Source: Euglena gracilis (Eukaryota). From it: a stretch of DNA of 64,000 bases. Numbering within the stretch: position 1 is the first letter of the stretch; each line of letters opens with the position of its first letter. The DNA is taken from NCBI GenBank assembly GCA_039621445.1, contig CP154954.1, forward strand, positions 7,752,634-7,816,633. The letters run 5' to 3'. Shown one piece after another: positions 27,328 to 59,800 of the stretch. The translations under genes and the position numbers were made by a program. The notes under the pieces were generated by a model. The model was not told the DNA's origin and did no database searches. It saw only the letters and a list, made by a program, of their open reading frames with translations.

Positions 27328-28911
27328 ATGCAAGTCTCCAGCCCTCCCGCAGAAGGACGGCCCGGGGACTGGAAATGTCCACAATGTGCAAACCACAACT
27401 ATGCATCGAGGATTGTGTGCAATCGGTGTCACGGCCCGCGGCAGGTGGAAGGGGACACAACTGCACAGCCTGTGCGGGGCAACGGCACCTCTCGGCCCAG
27501 TCCTGGGGACTGGTATTGCCCCAACCCAGCTTGCTGCAACCTGAACTATGCCTCACGGCCACCCCATTGCTTAGAATATTTTTTTTCCATCAGTGAATCT
27601 TTTTCCAGATTTTTTTTTTGCAGGCTGTGAAAAAATTTTGTGATTTACAGGTCAGTCAGAGGGGTGCAGTCCCCCCCGTGTCCCCACCGTGACCCACAAT
27701 GGGACCTTGGCTGGCCAAGGGAAAATGCCCAAAAATGACCTATTTCACAGTTTTTTGGTCCCCCCCAAAGAAGGCCATTTCTCCCCCTGACCCCCCCCTC
27801 CAGTTCCCCGCTCCACCCCCAGAGAGATGTGGAATGCCGCCCAAAGCCCGCGGTACGTGACAAAAATTCTTCCTGCAAGTTGTTGGGATGTTTTGTTTCT
27901 GAACTTTGTTAGATTGAGGCTCCTGGGCAAGCAGTGGCTTATGGTCCCGACTCGTGTGCAACCGCTGCAAGACACCCCCAGCGAGTGCAGCATTATACCT
28001 ACAGCAGGCTGCAGTGATGTGGTGTGGGATTCCCTTTAAATTCCCTTTTCTGCACTGCTTTCGTGTAGGGGATTGGGTGTTCAGCTCCCAATGCTCCAAG
28101 GCTCCCGTCCCGGTGACTGGCTGTGCATGACGTGCCAGAACCACAACTATGCCAGCAGGACAGTGTGCAATCGGTGCCAAGCAGCCAAACCGGAAGTGGC
28201 AGACAGGCATTTTTTTGTGATGGCACCTTGAGGGGCTGAACTCCCCTGGACTGTGTGCATCTGACCTGCAGTTGCCTGCACTGGTTGAATGACGCTTCCT
28301 GTGGCAACACAATTTTGTTTTTTGCTTCCACCCCAGTGTTGGCGAAAGAAATACAAAAAGAAATGTTCTCGAAATTTCAAGAATGTGGCTGGAGTTTCTC
28401 TGGTTGGTTCACACTGTTCTCTTTTGCTTTGCATTTTTTTTAGCATTCACAATAGAAATTTCCCCAACCTACCCTCTACCCTGACCCTACCCTACCCTGC
28501 TGGGTTTGATGAATTGTGGGTGAAGCAGGATCATCATTGGCTTGATGAAACAAAAGGCCTGGTTGCAGCTCCTCTGTCATCTCTTGGGATGGCAGTGCCC
28601 GGCTTAGGGACAGAAGCCAAGCCGGCAGCCCCGAGTTTTCGGGCAGGCGACTGGATGTGCCCACAGTGTGGGGATCGCACCGTTGCTTTGAGTGTGACCC
28701 CTCCTGTTTGGCCCGGGAGGGGGGGGGTGCAGAGACAACCTGTAGGGGTTTCAAGATGGCCCGGCTATGCTCAAATCCCTGATTACCTCCCCCCCACGGG
28801 TCAGAAAATCCCCCCAAGCACTGGTGTTGTGGCAACCACAACTACGCCAGCCGCAAGAAGTGTAACCGGTGTAACCAGCCAAAAACAACGCCGGAGAGCT
28901 CAGAGGCATAG
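27328..28911 (+). CDS. Spliced gene for a ~191-aa protein with four RanBP2-type zinc fingers (likely RNA-binding). Exons 27328-27556, 27949-~27977, ~28067-28200, 28567-28669, 28831-28911
   Basis: Joined exons give four W-x-C-x2/4-C-x3-N-Y-A-S-R-x2-C-x2-C motifs: GDWKCPQCANHNYASRIVCNRC; GDWYCPNPACCNLNYASR|LVCNRC; GDWLCMTCQNHNYASRTVCNRC; GDWMCPQC|GNHNYASRKKCNRC. Exon phases add up to an in-frame TAG at 28909-28911. A pyrimidine tract plus CAG acceptor at 27301-27325 precedes the ATG, so upstream exons are possible. Junctions 2 and 4 are ambiguous by a few nt. Confidence 0.9.
27557..27948 (+). other. Nonconventional intron (zinc-finger gene)
   Basis: ccattgctt pairs with aagcagtgg. Removal restores YASR|LVCNRC. 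Flanking 8-mers ctcacggc/gtcccgac match 5/8. Confidence 0.75.
28201..28566 (+). other. Nonconventional intron (zinc-finger gene)
   Basis: agaCAGgcatttt ... aaaaggcCTGgttgc. Flanking 8-mers gtggcaga/gttgcagc match 6/8. Confidence 0.88.
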
Positions 28912-29948
28912 GTGTGTTCTTTTGTCATTTAATTCTGTTTCTGGATATTCCATACAAACCAAGTACCAATCGAATTGTGTAAATGTCTCAAATGCCCAAA
29001 GCATTGTATTGATGCCTTTCCCCCCTTTCCATACGTGTGTCTAAAGTGGGTGCTTGGGCAGGGTATTGAGCGTTGATTTTGCACAGGGGGAGGGGAGGGA
29101 GGGTCCAACCCCCCTTCCAGGGGGGTCCAACCCCCCAAGGGCCCCCCAGGGGGTCCAGACCGCCCGACCCCTCCTCACGGCCGAGGGGGGGTCCGGGGAC
29201 CCCCTTGGAACAAGAGTTTTTTCTTCCCCGGCGCTTTGCGCCGGCAGACATGTGTTTTTATCGTCTGTTTTTGACAATTTGGAGGGAAAACCACTTGAAA
29301 ACACAATTTTGGGCATTTTTTGAATCCCCTCAAAAAATTTACAGCGCTTCGAACCCAGCAAGACCACCCCCCTCCCCCCCTCCCCCCTCTCATTAGACAC
29401 CTGCTCATGGGGCTTTTTTTTCCCATACGTAGAATAAAATTCTCTGGGTGTCGAGATGACAATTTGATACTGATATTTTTGGAGCCTGTTTCATGGACAA
29501 TTTAATGCTCCAAGTTCCAGAGCCCAACTGCTCAGGTTCCAAAGCGGTGAGGTGTTTTGTTTTTATTTAACCCAGTCTGAAATTCATCTTTTCCAAAAAT
29601 TTAGGTTGTTGTGTTAATGATGTTGTTGCTGAATGCCAGTTGACTTGTTTTTGTGAGCGTAGCTTATTTCATTAATTTCTTATTTGGTTTTCCATTTCTT
29701 ACCCCACGTGGAGTGACCAAAAAATGCGCAGTGTCTATACAAAAATCGACCGACGCTAACAGATTCAGCAGGGGCGCCGGGCGCGAGCGAGCGAAGCGAG
29801 CCGCCCGGCGCCCCTGCTGAATCTGTTAGTGTTGGTCGATTTCTCTAAAACTTATTTTGTCTGGGCCCGACGCCTGAATTGAAATTCATTCGACCGAACC
29901 GCCTGGACGGAAATATGGCCAAAAAAAGTGGTTTTTGGCCCATTAACA

Positions 29949-30077
29949 GGCGCCTGAATGGAAATCGTTAGACATAAACGGGCGCCTGAATGGAAATCGA
30001 CCGACATAAACGGGCGCCTGAATGGAAATCGACCGACATAAACGGGCGCCTGAATGGAAATCGACTGACATAAACGG
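29949..30077. repeat. 32-bp tandem repeat x4
   Basis: Unit GGCGCCTGAATGGAAATCGACCGACATAAACG. Confidence 0.9.
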
Positions 30078-31307
30078 ATTCCGATGTCATGGAAATCGAC
30101 CAACCTTTTGTGTCCTTTTTCTGAATGCTTTTTTGTTCCGTTTTGGGACATTGTCAATTTCGCAAAAAAACAACCAATTTTTGATCACCTTATTTTCAAT
30201 TCTCTTGTTGAAACCATCCAAATTTTGCCTTGAACTGGTCCACAGATGGTAAAAAGGCTTGTATTTGAAATGAAAAAAAAAGTTGCCCACAACCCTCTGT
30301 GGTGGTTCTTTTTTTGGTTGTTTTTAAAAAACAAAGAATCTTTTGCTTTTTTGCTATAATATATATAAATATTTTTGCTTTGGCTTCATTTTAAACGAGC
30401 TGCTAGCTGTGCCGACGTTTGTTGGACAGACATTCCAAAAAAGCACATCGCAACAAAGGGAAACAAAAAAATCGGCAAGTCCCAAAAAAAAAACTTGCAA
30501 AAAAGTTCCAAAGCTGCCAGACCATGGAGTTCCAAACCTCCGACAAAACAGTTCAAGATTTTTTCAAAAGGTTCCAATTTTTGCCAAAAGTGCCCAAGAT
30601 TATGGCAAAAGGTGTTTTCTTCCCTAAAATTTTGCATATTGACCCCTGGATGGGGCAAATTATAGGGATTTTGGTGAGTTTCAGGTGATTTGCATGATAT
30701 TTAAAAGAATTTGTTGGAGGGGGGCTTAAACCCTTTTTGGGGGGGGGGCTGACGGTTTTGGAGGTTGGGCCAACCATGGTCAGGCCGACCATTGGCCCTG
30801 GCTCATCGACCTCTGGAGCTTGGGTCAACCTGGTCCCCCGACCTCCACTGTATTTTAATTCCACCCCACCCTTTGTGAAAGTTAAGCCCCCCCTCGATTC
30901 TTTTAATTTAGCTCAAACTACATGGGAACACATGGTTGGTGGTCAAATTTTGGTGGTTGGAATGACCAGTCACTGGCGACCACCAAAAATTCCATTGTTG
31001 CGGCCAGTCGCTAGTGACCACCAAAAATTCCATGGCCGACCCTTGGGAATGCCTAATTTGTGTGAAAATTTTCCATTTTCTTGGAGGTCAGTTATAACCC
31101 CCTCCCTTTTAGACCAACCCCCTGTTTCTACCGACCCCCCAATTTACACCCCCCCCCTGGAAAAATCAGAAGAAGTCCATTTATACCGATTCACCTTCCA
31201 TTCCGACCCCTGGAGGGAAAAAGAAAAAATCCATTTATGCTGACCCCTTTGTTGCATCCAGTGCAAAGAAAGGGGTTGGCATAGATGGATGTTTATTGGG
31301 GGTGCAC

Positions 31308-31956: not shown

Positions 31957-32353
31957 CAGGCATTTGCTTAAGGACCCCGGGGGGGGGTACTGGCTAGCCA
32001 ATCGGCTAGACACTGGAAAAATTGGACTACCTAGGAGTCTACCTAGTCCGGGGGGTCCCCTGAACTGGAAAAAAAAATGGAAAAAAATTTCCTCCGGCGC
32101 TGTGCGCCAGAGGAAAAATGAGGTTTTTAATAGGTTTTTGGCTGATTTTGTTCCAAAAATTCCCAAAAATGGCCAAAAACGGGTATTTTTGGCCATTTTT
32201 GGGGGTCTCAAATTTTTTTTCCACTAGCTAGCCCTGTTAGCAGACCCCCCCCGGGGGGGTCTGCTAGAAATCCCAGTAGCCAAATTTGGACTAGCTGCAG
32301 TCCAGCCCCCCCCCCCCCCGGGGGGGTACTGCAATCCAGAAAGCAAATGCCTG
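31957..32353. mobile_element. hAT-type MITE (CAGGCATTTGCTT TIR) nested in another repeat
   Basis: TSD gaccagtc/gaccggtc. The empty site of the same host repeat is present at ~36400-36425. Confidence 0.9.
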
Positions 32354-36802: not shown

Positions 36803-37240
36803 CAGGGTTCGATATAAGGAGGGCGTACATGGTTTAGGTGGGGGGGTGTCCTCCCCTTCCCCCCCCCCTCCTTGCCCGCAGGGGGGGGGCCGGACCCCCC
36901 CCCCCCCCACCTGCAAGGGGGGTCCGGACCGACCCTCGGGGGCAAAAATTGACCCCCCCCAAAAAGGGTCAATTTTTTCCTCCGGCGCTTCGCGCCGAAA
37001 ATTTTTTGCATTTTTGGCACATTTTTGCCCAAAAAGTGCCCAAAATGGCACTTTTGGTCGTTTTGGGGGGTCAAAAATTTTCGGCCCGGCGCTTCGCGCC
37101 GGGCCGAAATTCGGCCACCCTGACCGCGCACCTGTTTAGGTGGGGGGGGGGGGGTGTCCCCCCCCCCCCCCCCCCCCTCCTGGCCCGCAGGGGGGGGTCC
37201 GGCCCACCCCCCCCCCCACCTGTCCTTATATCGAACCCTG
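36803..37240. mobile_element. hAT-type MITE (CAGGGTTCGATATAAG TIR)
   Basis: Perfect TIR and perfect 8-bp TSD GTTAACCC. Same family as 47459-47886. Confidence 0.93.
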
Positions 37241-40106: not shown

Positions 40107-41567
40107 CAGGGATTCCCTCTGATTCGTGGCACGAATAATCACGAATAATCACGAATCACCACGGATTTCGGGTTTTCCGAAAATCACGAAGAATCATGAA
40201 TATCACGAATAACCACGAATGAGATTTTTTTCCTGGGAATTTTTTTTCTTTACAACTGTAGTCATTCAGCATTCGGAACTGTGTTTTATTTGTTCTTTAG
40301 AAAATGTCTTCTTCGGATTCTGATGATGAGGTTGAGACCGCTTCACTGTTGCGCAACAACTGGCCGTGAGCGACTTTGCTTTCTGCTTTTGTGATGGATC
40401 ATGTTTTCAGCCAAAAAGGGGTTTGTTTGGACAATGGAACGCTCACAATGATGATGCATAGGTACAACGTTGGCAACTTTTTGTACCCCCCCCCCCTTGT
40501 CCAACGCCGGGCTTGTCTGACGACCACCCCCTCCCCCGGTCAGAGATGAACTTTTTGCATACATATGATGTTGGTTCGGCCATAATTGCTAAACGTTGGC
40601 CAAAAACAGTGAAAAATGACCAAAATGACCTAAAGATGGCCAAAAATGCCAACCATAGTCAAGAAATGGCAAGAATGGCCAAAAACAGCCCAAAATGGCC
40701 ATATACCCCCATCTTCGGTCAATTTTCCTCTGACTTGGGGTCCACCTCCCCCTCCCCCCCTTGTCCAATGACCACCCTCCCCCCCCCCTGGTCGGAGATG
40801 AGCATTGGCCATTTAGCGACCCCCCAGGGGGGGGAGGCATTTCCAATCCTAAAAGCATTGTTCTTCCTGCCATGCAGGGCGTAGCTCAAGAAAATTTGAC
40901 CCCGGCCCCCCTCGGGGGGGTCCAGCCAGCCAGCAGCCTTTTTCCAGCCAGCAGCCTTTTTCCGGGACCCTCCCCTCCCCCCCATCGACGAAAAATGGGC
41001 AACATGGCTCAGATTTGGGCTAGCCAGTCGAAAAATCGGCAGCTTTTTTCCAGCCAGCCCAAATTTTCCAGCCTCTGAGCTGGACCACCCCCCCCCCCCC
41101 CGGGGGTCCTTAAGCAACGCCCTGTTGCTAGGGCGGTCCATAAGGGACGGGAAGTTTTTTTTCGTTAAGGACCGCCCCCCGGCCTAAGGGCCGACCAAGG
41201 GCCGGCGAAGGGCGACCAGGGATTTGAAAAGGGGTTCAAAAGTCGAAAAACACACTTATTGACGTTTTGGGTGGATGGACGACAATTCAAGAATGAAATC
41301 ACTTTTTTTCCCCGAAGTCGACCCGTTTTTTTTTGCCAAAATATGGCCACTTTTTGGGACATTTTTCCCTATGGATTTTTCATTGAATGTGTCGGGACGG
41401 GATTTTTTTTTTGCTTAAAGACCGCCCTGCTTCCTGCCGGCATCCCAGCAGTCCATCATTTAGCTGAAAACCGGGCGGATTTTTGGAACCACAAATAATC
41501 ACGAATAATCACGAATAATCACGAATCAGAAATGGCGGTCCCCACCACAAATGGGAGGGAAACCTTG
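40107..41567. mobile_element. Older TIR element (CAGGGATTCCCTC...GAGGGAAACCTTG) with (AATCACGAAT)n subterminal repeats and nested insertions
   Basis: Imperfect TIR and flanking direct repeat GATTAGC (7 bp). Contains the MITE at 40875-41124. Confidence 0.6.
40875..41124. mobile_element. hAT-type MITE (CAGGGCGT(T)GCTTAAG family)
   Basis: TIR CAGGGCGTAGCTCAAG/CTTAAGCAACGCCCTG. Degenerate TSD ctgccatg/ttgctagg. Relatives at 43530-43959 and 61283-61711. Confidence 0.85.
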
Positions 41568-42619: not shown

Positions 42620-42738
42620 CAGGGGTTTTCAAAGCCGGAAGGGAGCTGACCCCCCCCCCCCCCTCCAGCCAGCCAGCACCTTTTTCCAGCCGGCCCGCGG
42701 GGCCCCCCCCCCCCCCGGAGTTCTGAAGAAAACCCCTG
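42620..42738. mobile_element. 119-bp hAT-type MITE
   Basis: TIR CAGGGGTTTTC/GAAAACCCCTG. TSD ataactag/ataactaa. Confidence 0.85.
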
Positions 42739-42991: not shown

Positions 42992-43269
42992 CAGGCCATT
43001 GTTTAAGGGTTCGCAGTACCCCCTTGGGGGGGGGGGGCTGGACTGCAGCTAGTCCAAATTTGGCTAGTGGAAATTCTAGTGGACTCCAGGGGGGGGGGAG
43101 TCCGCTAGCAGGGCCAGCTAGTGGAAAAATTTTCCTCCAGAAGCACCGGATTTTTTCATTCACAAAACTTGCCAAAAAATGCCCATTGTTGGTCATTGTT
43201 AGATTTTTGGAACAAAATCAGCCAAAAAACATATTTATAACCTCATTTTCACCTCGGCAGCGCCGGAGA

Positions 43270-43300
<31 letters not shown>

Positions 43301-43433
43301 GTGTTTTTATTTTTTTTTTTTGCTTTTTTTTTTTTCTTGTCCGGTTGGGGGGACGCCCCAGACCGGGGGAGGAAGTCTATTTTTTCCAGTGTCTAACAAA
43401 ATGGCTACCCTGGGGTCTTTAAGCAATGGCCTG
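42992..43433. mobile_element. hAT-type MITE (CAGGCCATTGTTTAA TIR)
   Basis: Perfect 8-bp TSD ATGGGAAG. Body homologous to 31957-32353 and 63170-63626. Confidence 0.92.
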
Positions 43434-44819
43434 ATGGGAAGGCAACTGGTCTGGGAGGAGCCTGGTCACCTGGATCATAGATTCATTTAACGCCGTGTGA
43501 CCCCCGGGGGGGGGGTTCGCGTGTGGGGGCAGGGCGTAACTTAAGAAAATTTGACCCTCTGGGGGGTCCAGCCAGCCAGCAGCCTTTTTCCAGCCCGGGA
43601 CCCCCTCCCTTTCCCCCCTCAACGAGATTTATTTCCAAGCACCCTTCGTTGGCTGGACGGCAACAGATTTTTCGCTTTTGTGGGTCAAAAATGGACAAAA
43701 AATGGGTCAAAAATGGGCGAAGATGGGTCAGATTTGGCTGTCCAGGACATTTTTGGGGTCAAAAAAGTCGATTTTTTTTATAGCTGGCAGTTTTTGGGAC
43801 ATTTTTTTTTTTCACTTTCGATTTTTTTAGTTCCTGGTTCGACCCCTGGTCGGGCCCAGTTCCAGCCCAGGGGGGAGGGGGGTCAGCCAGTTGCCTTTTT
43901 CCACCCAGCCCAAATTTTCCAGCCTCTGAGGTGGACCCCCCCCATAAAAAAACACCCTGGTTGGAGGCCTCTGGACCCCCCCCCCCCCCAGGGGGTGCGC
44001 CATGGGTCAGATTTGGCCGATCTTTTCAGCATTTTTGGCTGATTTAGGCTGGATTTCGGACCTCCCCCAAGGATTTCCCTCAGTCCTAAGGGACACTAAA
44101 TCATTTTTTTTTCCTGCTGACACAATGTCCCATGGCTTTGGCTCTGGGTGGACCACTTTCGGTTTGGTACCAATGGGGTTCGGCCAAACCGCATTCATTT
44201 TTTGAGCTATTTCATCCTCAGAGACCAAAAGTGACCCCTCCGCCCCGTGGAGGAGACAGCTGGGTTTTGAAAAGTGACGTTTTTTTGAAAGGGAAATTGA
44301 CCCCCCCCTTCCCCCCGGGTAAGCAACGCTTTGCAGAGGGTGCCTCCTCCACATGGGTTTCTCCATACCACATGGCCCGGGGGATTTGCAAGGAGGGATG
44401 AGCACCAGGAACTCCATCAAACAAAATCCCAGGTTTCCTCAGCCCCAATGCACACATCTCTCAGAACTGATCATGTCCCCCAGCACACCCAGCAACAAGG
44501 TTGCCTCCGGCATATTTTGAAGATGGTGCCAAAGGAAATCAGTGTTACGAATTGAATGAATGGAATCTCGGCTGGGTGCTCTCTCTGGTGGAAAGTCCTT
44601 GGCCGGGGGGGGGGAGTGAAAGCTGTGTGGCATTGTAGAAGCTCTGTGCTATGATTGTTTGCAAAGGGAGGCCAGGCTTCAAGGGGAACAGGATGAAGGG
44701 GCTGAAAAGGAGGCACAAAAATGGATGGCAGCATCCTGCACAAGGGTTCTTTGCGGACATTTCGGATTGTGCATTGAGGTTGCCATTTTTTTTTGGCCCC
44801 GGAAGCAACCTTAGGAAGC

Positions 44820-47800
44820 GACGCTGCCCCTGCCAATGAAGATGAACGCCGGCTGGCCCAGCTGGGGTACAAGCAGGAGTACACCCGCATCTTCAACACA
44901 TGGACCAACTTCGGGCTCACCACCAGCATGGTCAGCGTTCTGCTGGGCATCGTGCCCTTGTACACTTATTCGCTCCAGACTGGAGGTGTGTCCTCTCTTC
45001 CATCGCTCTCAAGCCCCCCCCCCCCAACGTGCCCAACAAACACTCCCTGTTCGGGCCGCAGCTGTTGTCAGGTGCGTTGCTGGGTGAGGATGGGGCTGTG
45101 GGGGGTGAAAGCCACTGCCTCTTGGGCTGGTGCACTCATTTAACACCTGTGTGAACCCCTCCCCAAAGGGGGTTTCAAGAATGGGTGGGTGGGTTGGGGC
45201 TGCTGGACCCCCCCCCCTGGGGGGCACCATGGGTCACATTTTGGCCCGGCTGAAGGCGAGGCCAGAGAATTTTTTCAAGGGGTTTCGGCCGATTTTGGCT
45301 TGGTATTGGGTGGGTGGGTGGGTGGGTGGGTGGGTGGTTAACCCCCACGGGGGGGGGGGGGGTCATGCGGGTTTGGACCCATGGAAGAATGGAAACCCCC
45401 CGGTCATTAAGCGAATCTGGGTGGAACCCAAAGCGAGCGAACCTTTCAGCGCGAATAATTGGAAGGGAGCTGAATAATGGATCAATTTTCAGCCTTTTTT
45501 TTGCAAAATCCCCCCAGGTGATTGGATCCGGTTTAGTGGTCGGCTGCAGGTGGGGGGGGGTGGCAAAGCCGACGTTGAGTGCATATTTGGCAGTTTGCTT
45601 TTTTTTGGACGCTGCTTTTTTGATTTTGGCGTATTTTAAAAAAAGCAAAAAAAAACGCCTATGAGGTTTTGCATGGAAAATTTTGTGAATGCATATTTTC
45701 AATCATTTTTGGCATCTTCTGGGATCTTTTCTGCCAAAAAAATTCTTTCCACTAAAATGAAAAAAGGCATTTTTTTTTGCCTTTTTGGATGTTCATTCAA
45801 AGTTTGGTTTGCCGAGGTGTGACGTTTCACAACGAGTTTTTTCAAATGAGATTTCATTTTTTTATTTCCTTTTTTTGTTTTTGTTTTTTGGCGTTTTTTT
45901 TTTCAAAAGAAATACGGTGTTTTTTAAAAACATGGTTTTTTTCAAAAAGAATTTGCAAAATGCCAAGCATGATTGAGTGTTAATGACTGATTGGTTTTCT
46001 GAAAAAAGTGAGTGACTGGTGTTTAGAAGAGTGGACGCGACCCCCGCTCCCCCCGGGAGTTGGTAAATAATTGTATAACCCTGAAAGGGTTTCCTTATTT
46101 CTGAACCGGGAGGTATTTTGGCAATTAACCGGGGCATTTTAACAAGGCACTTGGGGCAGTTTTAAATTTGCCCGAGATGGGGTCTGTCTGGTCGGTCGGT
46201 CTGGTGTGTTGGATTGAAGTGCCTGCCCAGACACTCGAGGGCACTCTGAGACCCCCCCCTCGGTGCAGAAGGGATGGGAAGCTTTTTTTCCTTTGAGGAC
46301 CGCCTTTGGGCCTAAGGGATGGCCAATGGCGAATCCGGGGATCGAACGGGGGCAAAAATCAAAATAAATCAAAAGGTCGAAAAACGCGTTTTTTGACGTT
46401 TTGGATGGATGGGCGATGGTTCAAGGATGCCCCTTTATTGCCAAAATACGGCTATTCCTTCGTCCATTTTTTTCATTGACTGTGCTGGGATGGGAAGTTC
46501 TTTTTTTTTTGTCAAGGACCGCCCTGCCCCCCCCCTCTTGGTTCCGGACTTGCCCCCATTGGCACAATTATACAAATCCTTTTTTTTTGAAGATTGCCAC
46601 ATCCCAAAATCCGAACAATATCATTATGACTGGCGCCCAAGTCAAGCAGTCATTCCCCAAAGCATTCCGGGCACAGGCCATGCGTGTGTGTTCCGGGACT
46701 ACCCAGCAACGACCATCAAACGGAAAGTTGCAGGAAAGATTCTGAGAAGGAGACCGAGCTGTGCGAGTCATGGCCAGTTCCCCCCCCCCCCGGACCCCCC
46801 CAGGCCCCCCCCATGACCCCTCCCCCCCCGGACCCCCCCAGGACCCCCCCAGGACCCCTCCCCCCCAGGACCCCCCCAGGACCCCTCCCCCCCAGGACCC
46901 CCCCAGGACCCCCCCAGGACCCCTCCCCCCCAGGACCCCCCCCCCCCACGACCCCCCCGGGGGCGGTACCCACAAGACCCAATAACCATGGCATTCCGGG
47001 GGCCTTAGGCGCACGCTACCGGGGGGGGGGGGGGCTACCGCCCCCCCCCGGACCCCCCGGTCTTCAAAATAGCCTCACCTTGTGGTGCAAAATTTTTGTT
47101 GTGTTGCGTGACCCCCAGGACCCCCAGGACAGGGTCCTGGGGGGGGGAAACTGGCCATAAGTGAGCTGTGCACCATGCTGCCCATTTTTGAAACTTGTTG
47201 GACCTGGGCTGACTTTGGCCAACCCCAGCACCATTTCATTTTTTGCTCATTTCATTTTTTGCTCAGATGTTTTTTTTAAAAAAATCAAAAAAATATAAAT
47301 AGCACATTTTATTGGAGAATCTGAACCAATTGAACCTGAAACAGTATTAAAAAGAGAGAGGGTTCATGTGATACTCAACCCGGTTTGGAATTGCACAAAT
47401 TGCAGTTTTGGAAGGGTTTTTTGAATTTTTAAAGATCTGCCCAAATGTGTCCCCCAAGCAGGGTTTGATATAAGGAGGGCGTACATGGTTTAGGTGGGGG
47501 GGTGTCCCCCCTCCCCCCCCCCCCTCCTGGCCCGCAGGGGGGTCCGGACCCCCCCCCACCTGCCAGGGGGGTCCGGACCGACCCTGGGGGGGGGGTATCC
47601 GAGACCCCCCCCCAAAAAGGGTCAATTTTTCCTCCGGCGCTTTGCGCCGAAAATTTTTTGCATTTTTGGCACATTTTTGCCCAAAAAGTGCCCGAAATGG
47701 CACTTTTGGTCGTTTTGGTCAAATTTTTTCGGCCCGGCGCTTCGCGCCGGGCCGAAATTCGGTCACCCAGACCGCGCCACTGTTTAGGTGGGGGGGTGTG

Positions 47801-50800
47801 CCCCCCCGCGCCCCCCCCCTCCTGGCCCGCAGGGGAGGGGGTCCGGACCCCCCCCCCCCCACCACCTGTCCTTATATCGAACCCTGCCCCCAAGTCCTTT
47901 GGCCCCCAATTTCACATCCCAAAGTGTATTACGGAAGTTGGCTGATTTTTGGACAGAATGCTTCCTGGCTCAAATACACTCAGCCACCTGGTGCTGCCCC
48001 CTCACCTTGTGGTGCTCTTTCCCAACAGGACCGGCCGTGATGCTCTGGAGTTGGGTCGTGATCGGTGTAATGGCCAAATCATTGCTTGGCTCCGCCACTG
48101 TGCTCACACTCACGAACAACAGTTGATGCCAGAAATGTGAGGGAGTCATTTTGGGCTGTTTATCCCAATCACTGTGGATCGCAACACACATTTGATTGTG
48201 GAAATGACTTTGACTTCGAAGAATTCGCATTTTCACCGCCTTTTTAAAAAAAAGATTTTGTCCATTTTTGCTTGTTTGTTTTATGTGTTCAATCAGTTGA
48301 CATTTTCGAAACCAGCAGTTTCCAACACGTGTAAGTTGAAATGGATGGATTTTTGTCCATCCTAGAATTCAAGTTTTAATTGATTGATTGATTAATTTTA
48401 AGGTTTGTTTGTTGGTGGTTTTTTTTGTTTGCAGAACACACATTTTTTGAAGGAAGATTAAACCCCCCCCCCCATTTAAACCGACCCGTCGGTTTAGGAC
48501 TTTTGGGTTGGCGGAAATCCTGGAGGGGGTCGGTTTAGACGGGGGGTCGGTTTCAGGGGGAGCACACGGCTGGCCAACGGCGCGACGGAAGCGGGTTGAT
48601 GTTAGCAAGGCAATTTCAATCGGCAAATGCCCAATTTGGTTGGCCAATGCCTAACTTTGAGTGACAAATGCCTGCAAATTCTTATTTTCGGTGGCAAATG
48701 CTGAATTTTGGGTGTCATATCCAATTTTTGGTGGCAAACTGCCTAATTTTGGGTGCAAACTTCAAATTCTAGATAGCAAATGCCTAATTTTGTAATTTTT
48801 GGGTTCCAACACCAAATTTTCGGAAGAAAATGCCCAATTTGAGGTGCAAACTCCAAAATTTTTGAAGCAAATGCCAAATTTTGGGTGTAAAATCCTAATT
48901 TTGGGTCATCAATACTAATTATTCAATGAGCATGGACGCTCTTTCCGTTGGCGGCTTCCATTATGTTGCGCATGTTTGTTATCCAATTTGCCATGGGTCG
49001 GTTTATTTCTTTTTTTGGTTGAAATTCTGCAATGGGTCGGTTTGGAAGGGTAGGTCGGTTTAGAAGGGGAGTCGGTTTAAATGGGGGGGGGTTTACCCAT
49101 CACCTCGCGGGGGGGGGGGGGGGTTGTGGGCAGGTTTGAAGGGAGGGCATTTTTTCCCCTCGAGGGATGGGTGATAATTTTTATAAACCAGGCTGATTTT
49201 TGGCCATTCATAGTCTTTCTCACGTCACAAATGTATCCAATGAATCTTGTTTTTCATTTGCTTTGTGCACAATTCACAAATTCCAGGGGGGTTATGCGAT
49301 TGGGATCCCCAAAAAGCGTACCAAAACGAAGTCGAAAACTCAAATGATTAATTCGGGGCAGTCTGGATCAGGCTTGATTTATTAAATTTTTACAGTGCTG
49401 TAGGGTGGCTGCTGGCCCCCCGCGGCGGGGGGGTGGTTGACTTGAGTTCCGTCTCGAGGCAATCCAGGCAAATTTCTTTTGCCACCCCCCCCCCCCCTAT
49501 GTCCAACGACCAGTAATCCCTGTTCTCCAACCACTGGGGGGGGGGGGTTGTTAGACACGGGATCCAAGAAAATGCATATAGGTTGGCGAAACCTCCGAAA
49601 AGGTGTCCTCGACAGAGGGGGGGGTCGTTGGACATGGGGGGGGGCAGGTCGTTGGACGTGGGGGTAATGACCATTTTCGGGAAACGCATTTTTGACCCCA
49701 GCTCACACAAGGTCGTTATGGTATTTTCCACCAACTCCGCCACAACAAGCAATGGCATGGCCAGGACACTGTTCGTGGTTTCCTCACTGGCTGAGATCTG
49801 CGCTGCGTATCCCACAACCAGGGTTTCATGGGGATCTTGAACAACCTTGAGGATGGAGGAGGGCTCGACCCCTCCGTGGTGGGTGGGGGGCCGCCCTCTG
49901 CTCGCTGTAATGTTACTGCATTCCACTGCTTTCAGTGCTGGTGATCAGAAATGGATGGATTTCAAGGAACAAGTGACTGGCTGATTCTTTTGAACGTGGG
50001 CGGTGCCCGTCGTAAAGGTGTGGTCCCCCCCCCTAACCTTGCCATGCAGCCCTGCCCGCAATGGGAGCACTGTATTTCTGGGCTTACCGCTTAGGCGGCC
50101 CCGAGTGGGGTCCAGGATGTTTTTTTTTTTGCTTTGATTGCACGCTGGTGTATCCCGGTATCCATGCACGCTGTTATATCCAACCATTTTGATGCACAAA
50201 TTACGCACAAGCAAGATATACAAATGCACCTACCTACCACCCGCCCACCCTTCCACACACACCACTCACACCCACGGCACATGCATGTGCACACACCCGT
50301 TTTCTTTCCACATCTCTTCATAAGTGATCATTAGTTCCAGCCTTTTTTTTAAGTTTTTGGATTGAATCTTTTTTTTTGAGAAAACAATCCTGTTGTGCCC
50401 CTTCTCCGCTTGGACCGCCGGATGGTGTAATTTGTTGGGGCAGATTGGGGGTGTCGCCAGTGGCGGCTATTCCGGCGCTGTGGTCATCGGCGAAATTGTG
50501 CAAATCACAACCGGCATTGCAATGAATCCAGCCCAGATTTTGGGAATTTACGCCGCACCCAAGCCTCTTTTTTTAAAAAAAATATATGCGTTTTTATTGC
50601 ATTCAAAGTGTAGCATTATTTATGCCCCAAAATTTTCAGTACACTGAAAACAAGGCCCAATTAATTGCTAAACAAATTAACCCCCTCAATAAGTGCACAG
50701 TGCCTTTATAAGTGCGCACCCCCAAGGGTCCGAAACCACCTCCCTAAAAAGTGCGCACCCCCCCCCCCCAAAGGAGAAATTACTGTCACATCTCAGGTCA

Positions 50801-53800
50801 GAAAGCACACACAATTCTCAGAATTGTCCTTCTCAGATCAAACATTTCTACCGCCCAAGCCGAAATTGGAAACACAATCACTCTTACCCCCCCCCCCCCT
50901 AGTCGTATGACCACCCCTCATTTATGACCACCCCCCGGTCACAGGTTGCAGGTCATGGGGGTGTTATGACCACCCCCCCCCCCCCGGTCACAGGTTGCAG
51001 GTTGCGAAAAATTTAACACCACCTTACCTATGACCGCCACCACATTTATGACCACCCCCCGGTCACAGGTTGCAGGTTATGGGGGTGTTATGACCACCCC
51101 CCCCCCCCCCCGGTCACAGGTTGCAGGAACCCGGTCATACGACTAGGGGGGGGGGTAGGTGGCCGGATTCGCATTTAAGCTTTTTTGTGTTGGTTTGCGC
51201 ATTTCCGCAAATTACCAAAACTTTTTTATATCGGCTGTGTGGCTCTGGGGGGTCTGAAAACACAGCAACAAGAGAGTGCAAAAAATGATCGAAATTCTGT
51301 TTTTGGCGGTGTGACCCCTGGGACTTTGGTGAGAAATGGTGTTTTTGGGGGTCCAGAAATGGGCTCCGCACGTCGAAACCCGCGGGACCTTCCCCCCCCC
51401 CTCATGGGAGTGAAAAAAAACGCAAAACAGCAACACAGGAATGGGACCTTTACTGCTGTTGTTGCTCCTATCCAGGCAAGGACAGGACAGCCACCAGATC
51501 CCACCGGATCCCACCGGATCTGCAGATTCGGTGACCATTGGTACAGATCTGGTAACAAAACCAGATGATTTGGGCCAAAAACACCTGAAAATGACCAACA
51601 TTCACTCAGAATGCTGGTTCATTGCAATTTTATAATCGATGGGCGCAGGTGTTTTTCTCTCATTCAGTCATTTTTGGTTGTGCCTGATTCTTGCCACGTG
51701 GTGCGATGCACGCGGTGCCGGCAGGGATTTTTTTTTCGGCGCCTCCCCCCCTCCCCCCGGGGTCCAAGTTTTAAAAACCCCCTGGGTGCCGCACGCGGTG
51801 TGAAACACGCGGTGCGGAAGCCACCCACCCACCCCCTGGGGGGGGGGGGCTCAGGGGACCCTTGTCTCGTAATGATTGAATATTTGTGTGCGAAAGGACA
51901 TTGTGCAAGTGGTTAACGATTGTATCACCTTGCTACTGAGCTAAAATGCAATAAATCAATAAAAAAACAACAGACAAGCAAAAAATCCAGACGAAAGCAA
52001 GTCATTTGAAATCCAGTAAAGTGTTGGAAGAATTACAGCAAATTTCTGTAGGAGGCAACATGCAATGGTCCGTTTGACAATTTTACGAAGCCAGAGGTTC
52101 GATGCGTCGCTTTGAGGCCAAAGTTTGTCTGGGGAAGATATTCCCTCAAAGTTGTTCTTCTCTTTCCGAAGAGACATCATCCACTTTCCATCCACCGTTT
52201 GATCAATGATGCGCATTAATGGTTTCAACTTGGGAGAAGGGCATGTTGCAATGCTTTTTTTTTGAACCCCCAAGGCTCCTGCCACAAACGCCAGCACAGA
52301 ATTGAAAATCTGGTGGTGTGAGCAGCCCCCACTCCCCACCCCCTCCCCATTCCTTGTTTTTCCCACGGTGCCGATTGTTAGGTGAAGGTGTTCTTTCGAT
52401 GCCGAAGAATTCCCCCCCCCCCCATGAGGTGGATCGGGGGAGTGTCCCCCACTTCCTGGTGGGTGTGGGTTGAACCCACAGCCATGCCAACGTTGGTCGA
52501 CCCGCCCACCCTCTTGGTGGCAGTGCTCATTGAAACGGGTGGGGACGCCAGTGGGAGGGGAATACCCTCTTATCTCAATTGGATGGGGAACCGGCGGGGA
52601 AAGGAGTTGCTTGGCGCGGACCCTTGTGGTGGCTGGGGTGGTCAACACCCTCTCCGACACGATGCTCACGGGCAGGCAGCTTTTTCGCCAGAGGTAGGTG
52701 GGCCACAGGACCAAAGGTTCATAGGTTCATTCAACACCTGTGGTGACCCTCCGGGGGGGATGGGTGGGTTTTTGAGATTGGGTGGGTGGGTGGGTTGGGA
52801 CCGCTGGACCCCCCCCCCCCCAGGGGAGGGGGTGTCCTGTGCCATGGGTCAGATTTTGGCCCGGCCAAAGGCCAGGCCAAACAAATTTTCGGGGGTTTTC
52901 GGCCGATTTTGGCTGGATTTTGGGTGGGTGGGTCAATGGTTGACCCCCCCCCCCCCTGGGGGGTTGTGGGTGGGGGGGTTTTGAAAACAGTGGGTGGGCG
53001 GGTTTGGGCCCAGGGTCCCTCGCGGGGGGGGGGTCACCAAGGTAATCCATGAATCTGACCCTCCAGATTCAATGACGCCATTGGGCTAAAATTGCCTGTG
53101 TGCAGGACTGTGCTACATCTCAGTGGTGTGGCACCTCGTGGGCTGCATCTTGATCATTGCGCTCATGAACTGCTATGCTCCAACCCACAAGTCGGTGTCG
53201 TATGAGAGTACAACAATTCTACTGGTTTCACACCCAAGCAGCAACTTCATTGGCTCCAAAACGGGCCTTTGCTTGAGAACTCCATTGGGGTCCACTCCAA
53301 GGGGGTCCATTGTCTGATATGTGCATTTGCTTTGCATTTTGCAGGTTTTTTGTTACAATGTCACAAGCACAAGCCACACGCACCATCCACTCTCGACATC
53401 CGCATGGTTACTATCCAATTTTGAAATCATGAATGCATTCACCATTTTACCATTATGACAAAAAAATCTTTCAGAAAAATTCTCTGCGAACCAGAGGGAA
53501 GGCTGCACCCCCAGCGCAGTCCTTACAAAAAATTCCGTCCCAGCATCTTCAATGGAAAATCCACAAAAAAGGTGCAAAAAATGGTCATATTCTGGAGGAA
53601 AAAAATGGGTCGATTTTGGGGGAGCACTTCTTTCTGGCGCACCTGGACCTTCGCCCATCCACCCAAGACGGCAGAAAAAGTGTTTTTTTTACTTTTTTTA
53701 TATTTCCGACACCGTCCGACGCCCGGAGAAGCCATTGGCTGTCCCGGCGGTGCTTAAAGGGAGGTCCTCTACGGGACTTCCCTGTGCACTCCTGGGGGAT

Positions 53801-56800
53801 GCTTTGGGAAGGTAAGTGGGGAGGGGCAGTGCTATGGCACACTTTGGCGGCGATGCCTTAAAATTGATCCCTCCCTGGAGGGTGTGCCTGCAATGGGCAG
53901 GCACCCGGGAGCACAAGGACTTGTTGGTTGTTGAAAAAGTTGTAAAAAAGAATCCTGCAAGTCCCCTTGCTGGGCGTCCTGTTGCGAAATTCAATTAAAA
54001 ATAATACAACAGATATAGAACCTTGTAATATAAATAAAAAAGAATAATAATGTAAATATCTCATAAAAATAAAATAAAAACTTATGAATAAAAATAAATT
54101 GTAAAGAAATGCAGAACGAGACCGCATGCTTTGATTCATGGGTTTGGAGATCACCTTCAAAAACGTCCAATGTCCTGGGTAGAGTTATGAGAGTTGTGAG
54201 TTTCCTCTGCTACGTGAGAGGCTGTGTCGTAGCCTGTGAATGTGGTGGAGGCAGCAAGCAAGCCAATCAGCCCAACATAAATATTTGATGGACACAAGCA
54301 GAAACACTTCAAAAAAAATTGTGTCTGGTGACAAAAACTGTTCGGATAACTTTATAAAAAAACAAATCAATATTTCATTAGAATAACATGAGTATGAGTC
54401 CATGAGTATGTGAAGAGAATTCCGAAATGTCCATCTATGACCAAGCTCATCAATTTCATATGTAATTCGCAATTTGGGATTTGGGAGTGCGTTTTGACAT
54501 TGAACTCATTTCCCACACTTGATTGTCCCCATTGCAGGCTGGGTGGTTCAACTGGTTCCTAAAGACCCCCCTCCCATCCAACACAGATGATGGCACAAAT
54601 GATCCAACTACCTGGGGGCCCCTTCCCAAACGATCCTGTTTGACCCCACCCCAAAGACTGAGCCCCTCCAAATACCCAAAATATGAACTAATTTGATGTT
54701 TAAGAACCCAACTGTCCAACAAAAGTTTCAAAAAATCATTGAATCCACGTTTTGAGCACATTTTACAACGATCCAATTGCAAGTTTTTTTGTCAATGTTA
54801 GAACCCCCCCTGAAGTTGTTGGTCCAGGTCAAAACAATTCAGGCGGTGCAGTTTCCGGGGGGGGGGGATTCTGAACCCCCCTTCCCCACTCTTACGCAGC
54901 CGAATTCACACTTAAGCTTTTTTGTGGGCTTTTGTGGGCTCTTTTTGCACCACCATGCAAATGAACACAAAGAAAATTATTGTGGCCTTGGGGACTTTGA
55001 AGTCACGAGGGCGAAAAATGAGCAAATTCCTGTTTTTGGGGAAACAGGGACCTGGGGGTTTCGTAAAAAAACGGCAATGCGCGCCTTAGTGCCCATGCAC
55101 AAAGAAAAAACCCTTAAGTGCGAATTCGGCCGCCTGAGCCATTGCTGGTGTCCATTCTATTCCCAATGATCCACCCCCATTGTGGCAATCCTGGCAACCA
55201 CCAGATTGCTGAAATCCAACCGTTCTGTTCCACCCCCCTTGCCATGATCGGTTCGGTGATCAACTGCCTTGTGCTGGCCAGGCTTCTCTTAAGCCCCACC
55301 ATGTGATGTGCAGCCGCTCAGGAAACTGTTGTGCACACAGTACGCCACCAGAAAAGTTTTTTTGATTAGGTGCCCTGGTGCCATGTTTTGCTGAGAATTG
55401 TTTCTCTTTGCTCCTCCCACAGGGTTTTTTGCATCAACGACGCCATATATCTGTTTTCGGGACCCAGGGGCTGATTGCTGGGGGCTGGGCGAGAAATTTG
55501 GGCTGCTGGCAACCTGGGGATGAAACCCCTGGCCATCGCGCTAAAACAAGCACAGAGCAGCATCGTCTTGTATTCTGATTTCGAAATTGTTTGGGTCTTT
55601 TGCTTTTTTTTCTTCGATTTTCGGGTATTTCTCCCCTTTTGGCACCCCAAACACAACCCTGTGACAAAGGTAGATTCCAACTGTGCTTGCCTTTCTGCCA
55701 GTTAACCCGCCGGGATCGTTCCAGGTGGGGCTGCACTCAGCGAAACGGAAGCCTGGGGGCCAGGGGTCATCTTCATCCTGGGCCTGAACTTCGCCATCCA
55801 GGATATGGAGCAGGGCGTTCGTCGCTGGTGTCGAAGGCCCCCCAGCCCCAGGGCCGGGTTCAATATGAGGGCAGGATGTCCAGGATCAAGGAGGGGGGCT
55901 TCCTTGGCTGCTTTTTTTTTTTCAACTCGGTTGACCCCCTGGGGAAGTGTCGCGCCAGGAGATTGCCTTTTTTTTGTAATTGGCAGTTTTGGGGGAGTTT
56001 TCCGTGGTTTTTTTTTTAGATGGGTTGACCCTGGGTTGAGCTCAGTTCCAGCTGGGAGACTCCCAGGGGTGGGGTTGTTAAGTGATGCCATGCCCCCCCA
56101 GGGGTTTTTTTTAGTTGTGGACCCCCGGGGAGGGGGGTTGGATATACTTTTCGGCGCAGAAGGCGCCGAAATTTTTTGAAAAGTGCTATTTTTAGCATTT
56201 TTCGCAATTTTTCGGCCATTTTTTTGTGGGTCCCCTGGGACCCCCCCCCCCCCCCCCCGGGCCCCCCAGGGGGTGGATGGGTGGGGGGGCCCCCCTCCCC
56301 CCCGGTCTTAAGAAAAACCCCTGGGGGGCCGCCAGGCATTACATTAAACCCTACTGGGGAGAGGAGGGGGTCCAGCCAGCAGCTTTTCCAGCCTCTGAGC
56401 TGGACCCCCCCCCCCCCCAGGGGTCGGCAAGCGACGCCCTGGTGCAGATGACCTCACGAATTCGGACAATGCGGAGGGCGCTGCCAGCACCCTCTGGGTC
56501 TCCCTCATGGGGGTCCCCCTCGCCGTGCTGTGCAACGTCATCACGTTCGTGGCCATCGAGTGCAGTAATTGTGCCAACCTTACTTCTGCCGCTCGCATGG
56601 TGTGCGGCCGATGTACTGTTGTGTTTTTCCCAGTCAGCTTTTATGATTGCAGTTCTGGTGATGAAAGCATGTCGAACCACGAAGTTGGATCACGTCCGGG
56701 GCAGAGGGAAAAGCTGGCATCCTTTTGGCCCCAGCGACATAGAAATCGGAAGGCAAATGTTTGCTATTAAAAGGCAAATGTTTGCTTTGCAGTATGTGGC

Positions 56801-59800
56801 CAGCCTCGCCCTCCTGTGCCATCCACTGTTTTTGCAGTTTATTTTTTGCAATTTTTTTTTGCTCCAGGCAGCTGTTCTGTGCCCCGCTGCAGGTCTATTC
56901 TTTCTCCCGCGACGGCGCCTTGCCGCTGTCCCGGTTCTGGTACCACGTCAATCGGCGGACGGGCTCCCCCGTCCGGGCCATCGTCCTGTGTGTCGTCATC
57001 TCCTTCCTCGTCGGTGTGCCTGGCCTCGCCAACGACACCGTGCTCGGCGCGCTGTTTTCTCTAACGGCCACCGGTCTGTGCTGGGGTCTGCTGGCTGCCT
57101 CGGCTGCTGACATTGTGCGACATATGGACAGATATTATATATGTATATATATCTGCCCATACGACAGATATATGACAGATGGAAGAATGCTGGCTGCTCT
57201 GGGGGCAGCATTTTTCCAGATTGCTTGCAAATCTTTGCTTTTCAGTTCCAGTCAGAAATGAGCCCTTTGCAAAGTCGCCGTGTTCTTTGCGCCGGAGCCC
57301 AGTCCTCGTTGGCCTCCTACATCATCGCCATCTTTCTGCGAATCACGGTGAGCCGCCCAGAGGTTTCTTTTCCGGTAATGTTCAGTAGGAAGAGGAGGCA
57401 AAGAAACCCCTGGAGCGGGCACACGTTCGTACCAGCTGAGTTCAACCTCAGCCAGGGGTTGCCACCTTGAGCGGTGAGCATTTAATCATTTAGTCACTGG
57501 CTGACCCAGCAGTGATTGGGACTGGCTTTTCAGAGTGAACGACTGGTTTCTGGCCCTAATCCCACCCCTGGGGGGTTGGGAAAAAACCACTGAAGTCACC
57601 CTGCACCGAAGGCACCAGGAAAAAACCTTTTTGGGTTGTTTTTTTTTTTTCACATTTTCGCTCATTTTCCCCTCGGCTTCCAGAGTGTCTTCCAAGGAAT
57701 AAAAGACTGACTGGTTTTTGGAAGAGTGGAACCCGGGGGTCAGTGATGGGAAATTGCATGGCTGTGAGTGGATGCTCCACGCTCCTGGTCCCAGAAAATT
57801 TGGAATCCTCACTTTTGGTTACCTGGAGCCTCCAGGGAGGCTCCCTGGAGGCTGGTTACCTGAGCCTCCCTGGTTACCCGAGGAGCCTCCCTGGAGCCTC
57901 CGGCAGGTAACCGATTTTGTACACAGGCCATGTTCGACACTCCATTTCTGCATCACAGCACCACAGCACAGAGCACGCACACCTGTCTCTTGTGACCTCA
58001 ATGGCACCTGCATGGCAATTGCATGTGGACAGTTTTGCGCATTTCTGGAGAAGTCCGTCCCTGTGGCAGTGCTTTCCGTTTGAAAACATCGCATTCATGT
58101 CATCATTCATTTATTTATATGCTTACACACACAAATCAAGTGTCGGTTGCATTGTGCGCATCCTCTTTCGCAGCTTCTTTTGTCTTGCAATGGCCACTGA
58201 GGCGCCTGCTGCCAAGCGGGTTCGGATGGCCGACGGACAGGTGTGTGCTGCGGAAAGGGTGGTGGGGGCAGACGTTGCCTCGCCTCAAGACATAGCACAA
58301 TTGGGGTGCCATTGTCGGTGTGGGCCAGTGAAACTGTTGTGGTGTTTGTGGCTATATCACCAGCAACAATGGCCACCTGTGGCGACACGTTGAAGGGTTT
58401 CTTATCCATGTTTCAAAAAAATGGGAACCGCCTTGGACCTCGACACCACCCTGCACCTGGACGTGCGTCATCTGATGGTCCATGAAACACACACTGGTCT
58501 GCTGTAGCCTGAGCACATCAAGAACGTCTGGACCTTCTATTGCGGTGCCAGTGCTGATTATTTGCCTTTCGTCAAACTCCTGCAGACCACTCCCCAGGGA
58601 CAAACATCTGTGAGTCCTTCCATGCGCAACTGTGCGAGCATCATGGACTGACGGGTCGGAAGGACTTGGACAAAAACACCATGTGGTTGGACCTGATCGT
58701 GCGCTCGTGGAATACTCCATCTTGGAGTTCCCAATGACTCCGGCTGCCATGGACACATGAGGCCCTGAACCACAACAGGTGCAACGTCTCTGCACGGTAC
58801 GGGGGGGGAGTCTGGTCAATTTTGCCAACCTTGTCATGGGAAGATTCTGGAACATTCCACGCTGGATCGCCATTTCCAAGCTGGGAAACGCCCGCACTGC
58901 AGCATGGGTGACCCATGTGCTGCGGGCTCTGCTGAAGGACATGCATCGTACAGCTCTGCAGAAAGGAACAACCACAGAAGCCCTGCTGGTTAATTTCAGC
59001 CAATTGACCCGGGAGGAGACCACGGCCGAAGACGCGGACTCCGAGGGGACTGATGGCTCTGAATCCATTGTGTCCCTACCAAACTAATACCTCACACCTA
59101 TATACGCTATACACACCCTATCTTCTTCCGGTCACAGGAAACTCAACGGTGCAGTCTCCTGCACAATTGCGTGCCACTTGCGTCGGTGGAGTTTGATATG
59201 TCCCCCCAGCCAGTGTTTGCAACCCCAACAGACAACGCCCCAATACTTCCCCTCCGGAAGCGCCGAAGGCTGCGGGATTTGGTGTTACAGGACGTGATAC
59301 AACCACCAGCTCAACACACTGACAGTGTGCAGGAACAGCCACCCATCCCCCCTCCCAAGAGTGACCAGAAGAAGCGTAAGCAGAAGCGCCCCGTCAATGG
59401 CTCCGAGGTCTCCTTCAGCGGAGTCCATATCCATTGTCGAAATCGCGGTCGGGGGAGTTGCTCTCTGTGGGTGTTCATTTCATTCAAAGCATTAACACAG
59501 GATGTATATGATGAAAGCATATGCACCGTCCGCCAATTTTTCGGTTTCATGACATGAAAGGCGAAGTCTGCTGCAGTTGCATCACACCGTTTACCTGTCG
59601 ACAGCTGACGCGTTGTTGGCCAAAATTTGTCCACACAAATGATTTTGTTATTGCGGAGCGGGGGGAGGGGGGGGTGAGGGGTAGGGGGGTTGGGGGAGCG
59701 AGGGAAAGGGGGGGGCCGCAGGCCCCCCCTTTCCACCGCTCCCCTCCCCCCCCCTCCCTGGTGAGCAACTGCTGATTCATGCATTCCGAGTCTGCAAGCA

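Follow-up and report, generated by a model that had tools for sequence, protein, structure and literature searches.

The nonconventional (NC) introns of euglenids, as published, have borders other than GT/AG, CAG and CTG motifs at positions +4 to +6 and -8 to -6 through which the intron ends pair, and repeats that blur the junctions (PMC3935182, PMC4770533, PMC11282704; these and the other papers cited by PMC number are drawn on in part). Direct repeats occur at most of their junctions, and an origin from elements resembling MITEs (miniature inverted-repeat transposable elements) has been proposed (Milanowski et al. 2014, PMC3935182). A newly gained intron of Euglena agilis carries an 8-nt direct repeat (Milanowski et al. 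2016, PMC4770533), and a review refers to 'TSD-like sequences', that is, sequences like target-site duplications (TSDs), and interprets CAG/CTG as terminal inverted repeats (TIRs; PMC11282704). Introns with 'slidable' junctions make up 84.4% of introns in a recent study (PNAS 2025, PMC12501133). The origin and spread of euglenid NC introns has been an open question since the 1990s, and a MITE-like origin is in print as a hypothesis; a transposon origin was still phrased as plausible in 2025 (PMC12501133, PMC12621601). Here we analyse the NC introns and the small inverted-repeat elements in a 64,000-nt stretch of Euglena gracilis DNA (assembly GCA_039621445.1, contig CP154954.1, forward strand, 7,752,634 to 7,816,633), called the window below. 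All positions are those of the window.

The window is E. gracilis-like nuclear DNA with two recognised genes, a RanBP2-type zinc-finger gene (27328..28920, plus strand) and an amino-acid permease gene (44473..62686, plus strand), both of which are interrupted by NC introns. The 8-mers found at the junctions of these introns are probably worn 8-bp TSDs of small non-autonomous CAGG...CCTG transposons that inserted in exons. Unlike in the published euglenid cases, free or nested copies with exact TSDs and an intron that belongs to an element family occur here side by side. A first-pass annotation of the window had already read the junction 8-mers as TSDs, and had added the idea of a gradient of decay. 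Its finding is a correct rediscovery, as slidable introns, junction repeats resembling TSDs and an origin from MITE-like elements are all in the literature; the free elements and the link between an intron and an element family may be new. A literature search, which did not extend to subscription papers or to the supplements of PMC12501133 and PMC4770533, found no paper naming Euglena MITE or hAT families or Euglena introners.

Dispersed elements with 8-bp duplications

A scan of the whole window collected CAG...CTG pairs that are separated by 40-1200 nt and whose ends are complementary at 10 or more of 12 positions, and the 8 nt outside each end were compared. Among the 92 pairs recovered, the flanking 8-mers are identical in five, match at 7/8 in five and at 6/8 in four. 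Three of these last four pairs are NC introns, described below as introns B, C and D. When 8-mers displaced 12 nt outward were used as a control, none reached seven or more matches, and the DNA outside the 8-bp repeats is unrelated, as in classical insertions. One 7/8 pair (8578-9610), situated in a palindromic array of gtgtacac, was not counted, leaving four clean 7/8 copies. A scan for inverted repeats of any kind yielded 507 pairs, seven of them with flanks matching at 7/8 or better; five of the seven begin with CAG, and the other two are of low complexity.

All element copies begin with CAGG and end with CCTG, have TIRs of about 12-18 nt and fall into dispersed families with 70-88% identity. 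The two family-A elements are 88% identical to each other; one is intergenic (36803..37240, 438 bp, TSD gttaaccc, 8/8) and the other lies inside the permease gene, nested in its conventional intron 2 (47459..47886, 428 bp, TSD cccccaag, 8/8). Family B (74-76% identity) comprises an intergenic copy (42992..43433, 442 bp, TSD atgggaag, 8/8), a copy at 63170..63626 (457 bp, TSD gtcaggaa, 8/8) and one in reverse orientation (31957..32353, 397 bp, TSD gaccagtc/gaccggtc, 7/8). Family C includes a copy nested in the NC intron 60670-62212 (61283..61711, 429 bp, TSD agccacac, 8/8), a shortened copy with flanking 8-mers matching at 5/8 (40875..41124, 250 bp) and a copy of about 429 bp (43530..43958) whose flanks, gtgtgggg/gttggagg, match at 5/8 when counted by eye. 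Family D is represented by an element just upstream of the zinc-finger gene (26771..27048, 278 bp, TSD aacatgac/aacatggc, 7/8). There are also two mini-elements, one of 119 bp (42620..42738, TSD ataactag/ataactaa, 7/8) and one of 63 bp nested in the NC intron 50557-52618 (51722..51784, TSD ggtgccgg/ggtgccgc, 7/8). The copies lie between genes or nested in long introns, and none with a TSD of at least 7/8 splits coding sequence. When metagenomes were scanned for the end motif of families B and C, a single chance match was returned, on an unrelated AT-rich contig.

The kilobase-sized permease introns (44984-48026, 50557-52618, 57449-60564 and 60670-62212) owe much of their length to nested element copies and fragments, for example those at 47459-47886, 51722-51784, 60221-60442 and 61283-61711.

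In families B and C (copies at 42992, 63170, 31957, 61283 and 40875), positions 5-8 of the terminal repeat vary between copies (ccat, cttt, catt, gggt/gcgt and gcgt). These positions are identical at both ends within each copy, and the CAGG and TGCTTAAGG blocks are constant. The ends behave as if pairing had been kept, or one end had been copied from the other. Under the class-wide proposal given below, this co-variation could mean that selection acts on pairing, and hence on splice-competence, in free copies as well. Co-variation would also be expected, provided that RNA-level pairing matters, if the elements were not DNA transposons but re-inserted introns, arising when excised (circular) NC-intron RNA is copied back into DNA, and full-length circular NC-intron RNAs have been described (cited in PMC11282704 and PMC12621601). 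A copied intron, however, would bring along its old spacers of 3 and 5 nt and would leave no 8-bp duplication at the site it enters, whereas the 8-mers here vary from copy to copy, each being an exact direct repeat of the DNA around it. We therefore consider re-insertion very improbable as the source of these elements.

Junction similarity of the NC introns

The permease locus is matched by EukProt EG_transcript_5049 (P0001, 561 aa), from the E. gracilis transcriptome, which maps to it with ~100% identity in about 19 exon pieces. Intron lengths were set from this protein, by listing, between adjacent exon anchors, all combinations of donor and acceptor that yield P0001. Because the length is exact, there is no freedom in choosing the register for comparing 5' with 3' junctions. 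Fifteen of the 17 gaps in the permease could be solved, as 12 NC introns and three ordinary GT-AG introns; the two others are taken up with the irregularities of this gene below. Two further NC introns flank an inverted permease exon and were compared in virtual orientation. For the zinc-finger gene, the invariant finger spacing sets the lengths of intron A (392 nt) and of the intron in finger 4 (161 nt). These 16 NC introns form the main test set. Intron B was excluded, since its register had been chosen with the repeat in view and its inclusion would be circular. The permease introns are absent from the transcript-derived P0001, and the zinc-finger gene was judged by its homologues and by finger spacing.

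The first-pass annotation drew its case from four pairs of 8-mers, in introns that we call A to D (all on the plus strand). All eight 8-mers lie where it implied, with the identities it gave (6/8 in three pairs and 5/8 in one). The offsets within pairs (392, 366, 244 and 63 nt) equal the lengths of the respective introns, and positions 27557, 28201, 49816 and 57355 are canonical donor positions, 3 nt ahead of a CAG-type core. Intron A (27557..27948, 392 nt) has the pair ctcacggc (27552-27559) and gtcccgac (27944-27951), matching at 5/8, and both copies encode Ser-Arg (tca cgg and tcc cga). Its length is based on the N-x6-C spacing of the RanBP2 finger (NYASR-LVCNRC), and it has a CA/TG core, spacers of 3 and 5 nt and an acceptor exon beginning with G. 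Intron B (28201..28566, 366 nt, with an inferred register) has gtggcaga (28196-28203) and gttgcagc (28562-28569), 6/8. Its element part is 28204-28561 (CAGGC...GCCTG), it is in frame, and its inferred length obeys the published rule of 3-nt and 5-nt spacers. Intron C (49816..50059, 244 nt, fixed by the protein) has cccacaac (49811-49818) and cccgcaat (50055-50062), 6/8, an exact slide repeat, caa, and four equivalent junctions; its element part is 49819-50054 (CAGGG...CCCTG). Intron D (57355..57417, 63 nt, also fixed by the protein) has gagccgcc (57350-57357) and gagcgggc (57413-57420), 6/8, and the ends of its element part (57358-57412) are similar to those of the 119-bp and 63-bp mini-elements. 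At their canonical positions, introns A to D begin with gg, ag, aa and gc and end with cc, gc, gc and gg, and so are not of the GT/GC-AG type. The other introns, which the annotation had placed near chance, score 2-4/8.

A single pair matching at 5/8 or 6/8 is weak evidence. Of 182 non-self pairs anchored on the core, 13 score 5/8 or more and two score 6/8. Given some 17 introns and a free choice of window, a few such pairs would be expected by chance and could then have been quoted selectively; in scanned windows, 13 of 240 non-self pairs reach at least 6/8, and the register at 28201 was picked with the repeat in view. A permutation test, as the annotation had proposed, was run on the 16 introns, with a null in which each 5' site is paired with the 3' site of another intron (derangements). 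The mean best in-register 8-nt window is 4.69 matches in real introns and 3.68 in derangements (p=2e-4), and matches within 8 nt on either side are 5.75 versus 4.22 (p=5e-5). A score of at least 6/8 is reached by five of the 16 real introns, against the 13/240 of the null (p=0.0012), and a shifted-register control gave 4.57 versus 3.52. The excess remains when the two introns next to the inverted exon are left out (p=8.5e-4) and when only the 12 plain permease introns are used (p=0.018). The purine/pyrimidine preferences of the junctions, which the annotation had named as the control that could refute it, are covered by non-self pairing, under which the excess persists. With 8-mers anchored on the cores of the 10 canonical introns, 37 of the 80 positions agree, where a fraction of 0.28 is expected (p=4.8e-4). 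Chance with selective quotation is thus rejected by the permutation, shifted-register and core-anchored tests, also without the 28201 intron, and we regard it as largely refuted and scarcely credible.

Matches per position 1-8 in the core-anchored comparison are 5, 5, 2, 3, 4, 7, 5 and 6 of 10, reaching the outer positions 1-2, in a sample too small to separate a plateau from a peak. The zone within which the junction can slide is 1-5 nt long, and 41 of the 54 positions inside it match.

The intron in finger 4 (28667..28827, plus strand, 161 nt, from the finger spacing C-P-Q-C-G-N-H-N) has the longest exact junction repeat of the window, tgtgg (5 nt), and has no CAG/CTG core at the canonical distances. 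It could be either a different kind of NC intron or the product of an incomplete exon model in this region.

An exon-splitting intron related to family C

The most direct connection between the elements and the introns is NC intron p11 of the permease gene (55808..56446, plus strand), which splits an exon. Its protein-derived length of 639 nt is 8 nt more than that of the family-C element it contains (55811-56441, 631 nt). A family-C nhmmer profile matches 56170-56441 (E=9.9e-13) and stops exactly at the CTG of the intron, a second match covers 55945-56068 (E=1.6e-8), and the 5' end, cagggcgtt, is the end of family C. From the profile match, the shared 5' end and the sum 639 = 631 + 8, we conclude that this exon-splitting NC intron is a copy of a family that duplicates 8 bp on insertion. 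A stretch related to the family-D element at 26771 also lies inside p11.

Clear membership of an element family was found for this intron alone, one of 17 NC introns. The likeness is broader at the intron ends. Beyond CAGG, the 26 ends contributed by 13 NC introns agree with 20 ends of elements at 7.5 of 14 positions, compared with 5.9 of 14 at 601 control CAGG sites (p=1.9e-6); T-richness common to both sets of ends may contribute to this.

Splicing geometry and the origin of the repeats

The experimentally defined Euglena splicing code consists of a 3-nt spacer, CAG...CTG, a spacer of 5-6 nt and a purine at the start of the acceptor exon (PMC12501133). The canonical donor, 3 nt before the C, falls inside the protein-consistent range in 16 of 16 introns. 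The acceptor spacer is 5 nt in 12 of them, 6 nt in two and 4 nt in two, and in 15 the acceptor exon begins with a purine. The finger-4 intron does not conform to this code. Terminal duplex energies of the NC introns range from -11.9 to -26.3 kcal/mol. In most introns, the unpaired nucleotides between the CAG/CTG-type cores and the junctions total eight. Each quoted 8-mer is composed of five exon nucleotides and the donor spacer on the 5' side, or of the acceptor spacer and three exon nucleotides on the 3' side. As 3-nt and 5-nt spacers give eight by themselves, the four quoted pairs cannot prove a duplication. Spacer and purine features of the published code are present in 12-15 of 16 introns, and short repeats blur the junctions in both data sets. 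In the sections of PMC12501133 drawn on here, repeats are treated as a nuisance for motif finding and spacers as arbitrary, and the sum of 3 and 5 is not taken as the length of a TSD.

We propose that small non-autonomous DNA transposons with CAGG...CCTG inverted ends would insert into exons and make 8-bp TSDs. The NC splicing system would then recognise the paired CAG/CTG ends and cut 3 nt before CAG and 5 nt after CTG. Excision would take the element and exactly 8 nt, which would restore the reading frame that preceded the insertion. As long as the duplication is intact, all nine cut positions would yield the same mRNA, a 'slidable' junction, and the halves of the repeat that serve as intronic spacers would be expected to drift later. 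The annotation's claim that worn TSDs explain junction sliding follows logically from such a scheme and agrees with the slidable introns described in the text of PMC12501133. By extension, every NC intron in the window may have originated from an element insertion, and low repeat identity may reflect greater age.

The reading as worn 8-bp TSDs is carried by the elements with perfect TSDs, by the family link of p11 and by the likeness of intron and element ends. Several observations weigh against it. The p11 flanks (atatggag/gtgcagat) keep only 3/8, as against 5/8 or 8/8 in free copies that have diverged to a similar degree. When introns are aligned at the leftmost junction, the excess is limited to the next four positions (12, 10, 10 and 9 of 16, against a fraction of about 0.27), and positions 2-5 beyond the slide zone, on either side, match at 42/128 (0.33 versus 0.274, p=0.10), which is not significant. 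Proxies for a gradient of decay with age gave no significant correlation. Repeat identity does not follow end-pairing strength, measured as terminal duplex energy (rho=+0.24, p=0.36, n=16, with the sign opposite to the prediction), and shows only a weak trend with the length of the intron (rho=-0.44, p=0.086). BLAST against the window gave no non-self match for nine NC introns of short or medium size, 63-486 nt (p1, p4, p5, p10, p13, p14, zA, zB and zF4), and no transposase domain was detected among 202 window ORFs scanned against Pfam. Synthetic introns with arbitrary spacers are spliced (PMC12501133), so repeats are unnecessary and the 3+5 arrangement could be pure enzyme geometry. In addition, the junctions are based on protein mapping, not on RNA, and the sample consists of two genes and 16 introns.

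Some of these observations are shared with an explanation based on the splicing mechanism and selection, in which variable cutting favours introns with short junction repeats and the 8-nt frame is simply the sum of the 3-nt and 5-nt spacers. The excess is concentrated in a 1-5-nt zone at the cut site, as this explanation would have it. The donor spacer equals the start of the acceptor exon at 18/30 positions and the acceptor spacer equals the end of the donor exon at 19/50, a pattern unlike uniform drift. Spacer lengths are functionally required, and direct repeats are common at conventional introns of E. agilis too (both in PMC12501133). On the other hand, tolerance of the cutting step leaves unexplained both the perfect 8-bp repeats around free and nested non-coding elements and the membership of p11 in a family, and repeat-free synthetic introns splice well in the same study (PMC12501133). 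On balance, we think this explanation unlikely.

Gain by repair of double-strand breaks, where staggered breaks or microhomology joining leave short direct repeats and no transposase is involved, has been put forward for the 8-nt repeat of the new gapC intron of E. agilis (PMC4770533). The variable length of the exact repeats (1-5 nt) would suit microhomology. Break repair predicts neither a constant 8-nt frame nor CAGG...CCTG ends, nor dispersed families with exact 8-bp duplications, and the homology of an intron to an element family is not expected from it either. We consider it improbable. The exact 8-bp repeats around the free copies are accounted for by none of the alternatives, and worn TSDs of inserted transposons are the reading that we prefer.

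If the elements described here are the source of NC introns, the question of origin becomes a genome-wide test that can be counted, and the 3+5 splicing geometry gains a reason, as it would remove an element and one 8-bp duplication. A natural free element would be directly testable in the existing synthetic-intron reporter system, and a case that does not involve the spliceosome would join the story of transposons turned introns (introners).

Relation to known transposons and transposon-derived introns

Splicing can reportedly remove the maize element Ds from transcripts, a finding ascribed to Giroux in 1994. The elements here differ in that they would be removed by a non-spliceosomal code at fixed offsets, not through cryptic GT/AG sites. 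Introners of Micromonas and Aureococcus are likewise said to be DNA transposons with TIRs and TSDs that turned into introns, according to Huff, Zilberman and Roy in 2016. The likeness to the present case lies in TIR/TSD DNA transposons becoming introns and in a duplication that permits exact restoration of the exon. Introners are removed by the spliceosome and have many near-identical genic copies, whereas our sample comprises two genes in which most introns are too diverged to be assigned to a family. Amoebophrya introner elements are comparable transposon-derived introns (figure legend in PMC11282704).

The elements may belong to the hAT superfamily, based on their 8-bp TSDs and termini of the (C/T)AGGG type. 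Ac/Ds ends are (C/T)AGGGATGAAA, with 8-bp TSDs (PMC3260210), and short non-coding copies of about 400 bp are a further likeness to hAT elements, among them Ds of maize (PMC3260210) and Hermes (PMC10368747). The target preference of Hermes is nTnnnnAn (PMC10368747). Among nine copies here, TSD position 7 is A in six (p=0.007), but position 2 is T in only four (p=0.17). In contrast to complete hAT systems, neither a transposase nor an autonomous partner was seen in the window.

Merlin elements were also considered, since DNA transposons of this type, with 8-bp TSDs, are documented in E. gracilis (PMC8101967). They were rejected as the source because Merlin has a conserved terminal GG in that account, whereas the elements here end in CAGG...CCTG; the CA/TG is inverted and thus part of the element.

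More tentatively, euglenid NC introns as a class could be exon insertions of a hAT-like MITE lineage, with a splicing code that amounts to precise excision at the RNA level and whose offsets sum to the 8-bp TSD. We are rather less confident in this wider proposal than in the reading of the junction repeats as TSDs, and lean slightly against it. If true, it would account for the restoration of the frame, the sliding of most junctions and the continued appearance of new introns.

Genes and other features of the window

The zinc-finger gene has four fingers and a start codon at 27328, and its end is approximate. Pfam PF00641 was found on two exon ORFs in the 27.3-28.2 kb region, and comparison with the euglenid-like homologues P0027-P0031 gave alignments at 45-70% per finger. 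No exact transcript-derived protein was found in the database search, only homologues with 43-53% identity. A conventional GT...AG intron of about 46 nt (~28023-28068) lies between ...AAVMW and GLGVQLPML and was placed by homology to P0030 only.

The coordinates of the permease gene, which carries Pfam PF13520/PF00324 (AA_permease), begin at its first codon and stop at the last exon that could be mapped; one or more C-terminal exons either lie beyond the window or escaped detection. Residues 227-263 of P0001 are encoded, with 100% identity, by an exon on the minus strand (54178-54288) inside this plus-strand gene. The 5' core of the preceding intron, cccaagcag (53233), pairs with the sequence adjacent to the exon only in the inverted orientation, which implies an inversion of the DNA segment, present either in this allele or only in the assembly. 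Inverted repeats that might explain it were sought, but the arms found measure only 16-33 nt and none flank the exon. At 53197-53215, the codons for ...KSVSY and those for EYNNSTGFT are separated by 2 nt in the genome, although the transcript-derived protein calls for 9 (VLT), and this 7-nt shortfall at ~53.2 kb shifts the frame. Two residues also differ from P0001 (T to I near residue 159 and V to E at 302). An allele, a pseudogene and an error of assembly are all possible explanations for this copy of the permease.

A Pfam scan of 114 further ORFs outside both genes detected neither a transposase nor any other family. An interstitial array some 1.1 kb long (25052-26200), located just upstream of the zinc-finger gene, contains ~190 degenerate copies of CCTAAC, similar to the telomere-like CCCTAA (71% matches), and has a strong negative GC skew. 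It is adjoined by tandem repeats of 51, 189 and 329 bp at 24310-25033.

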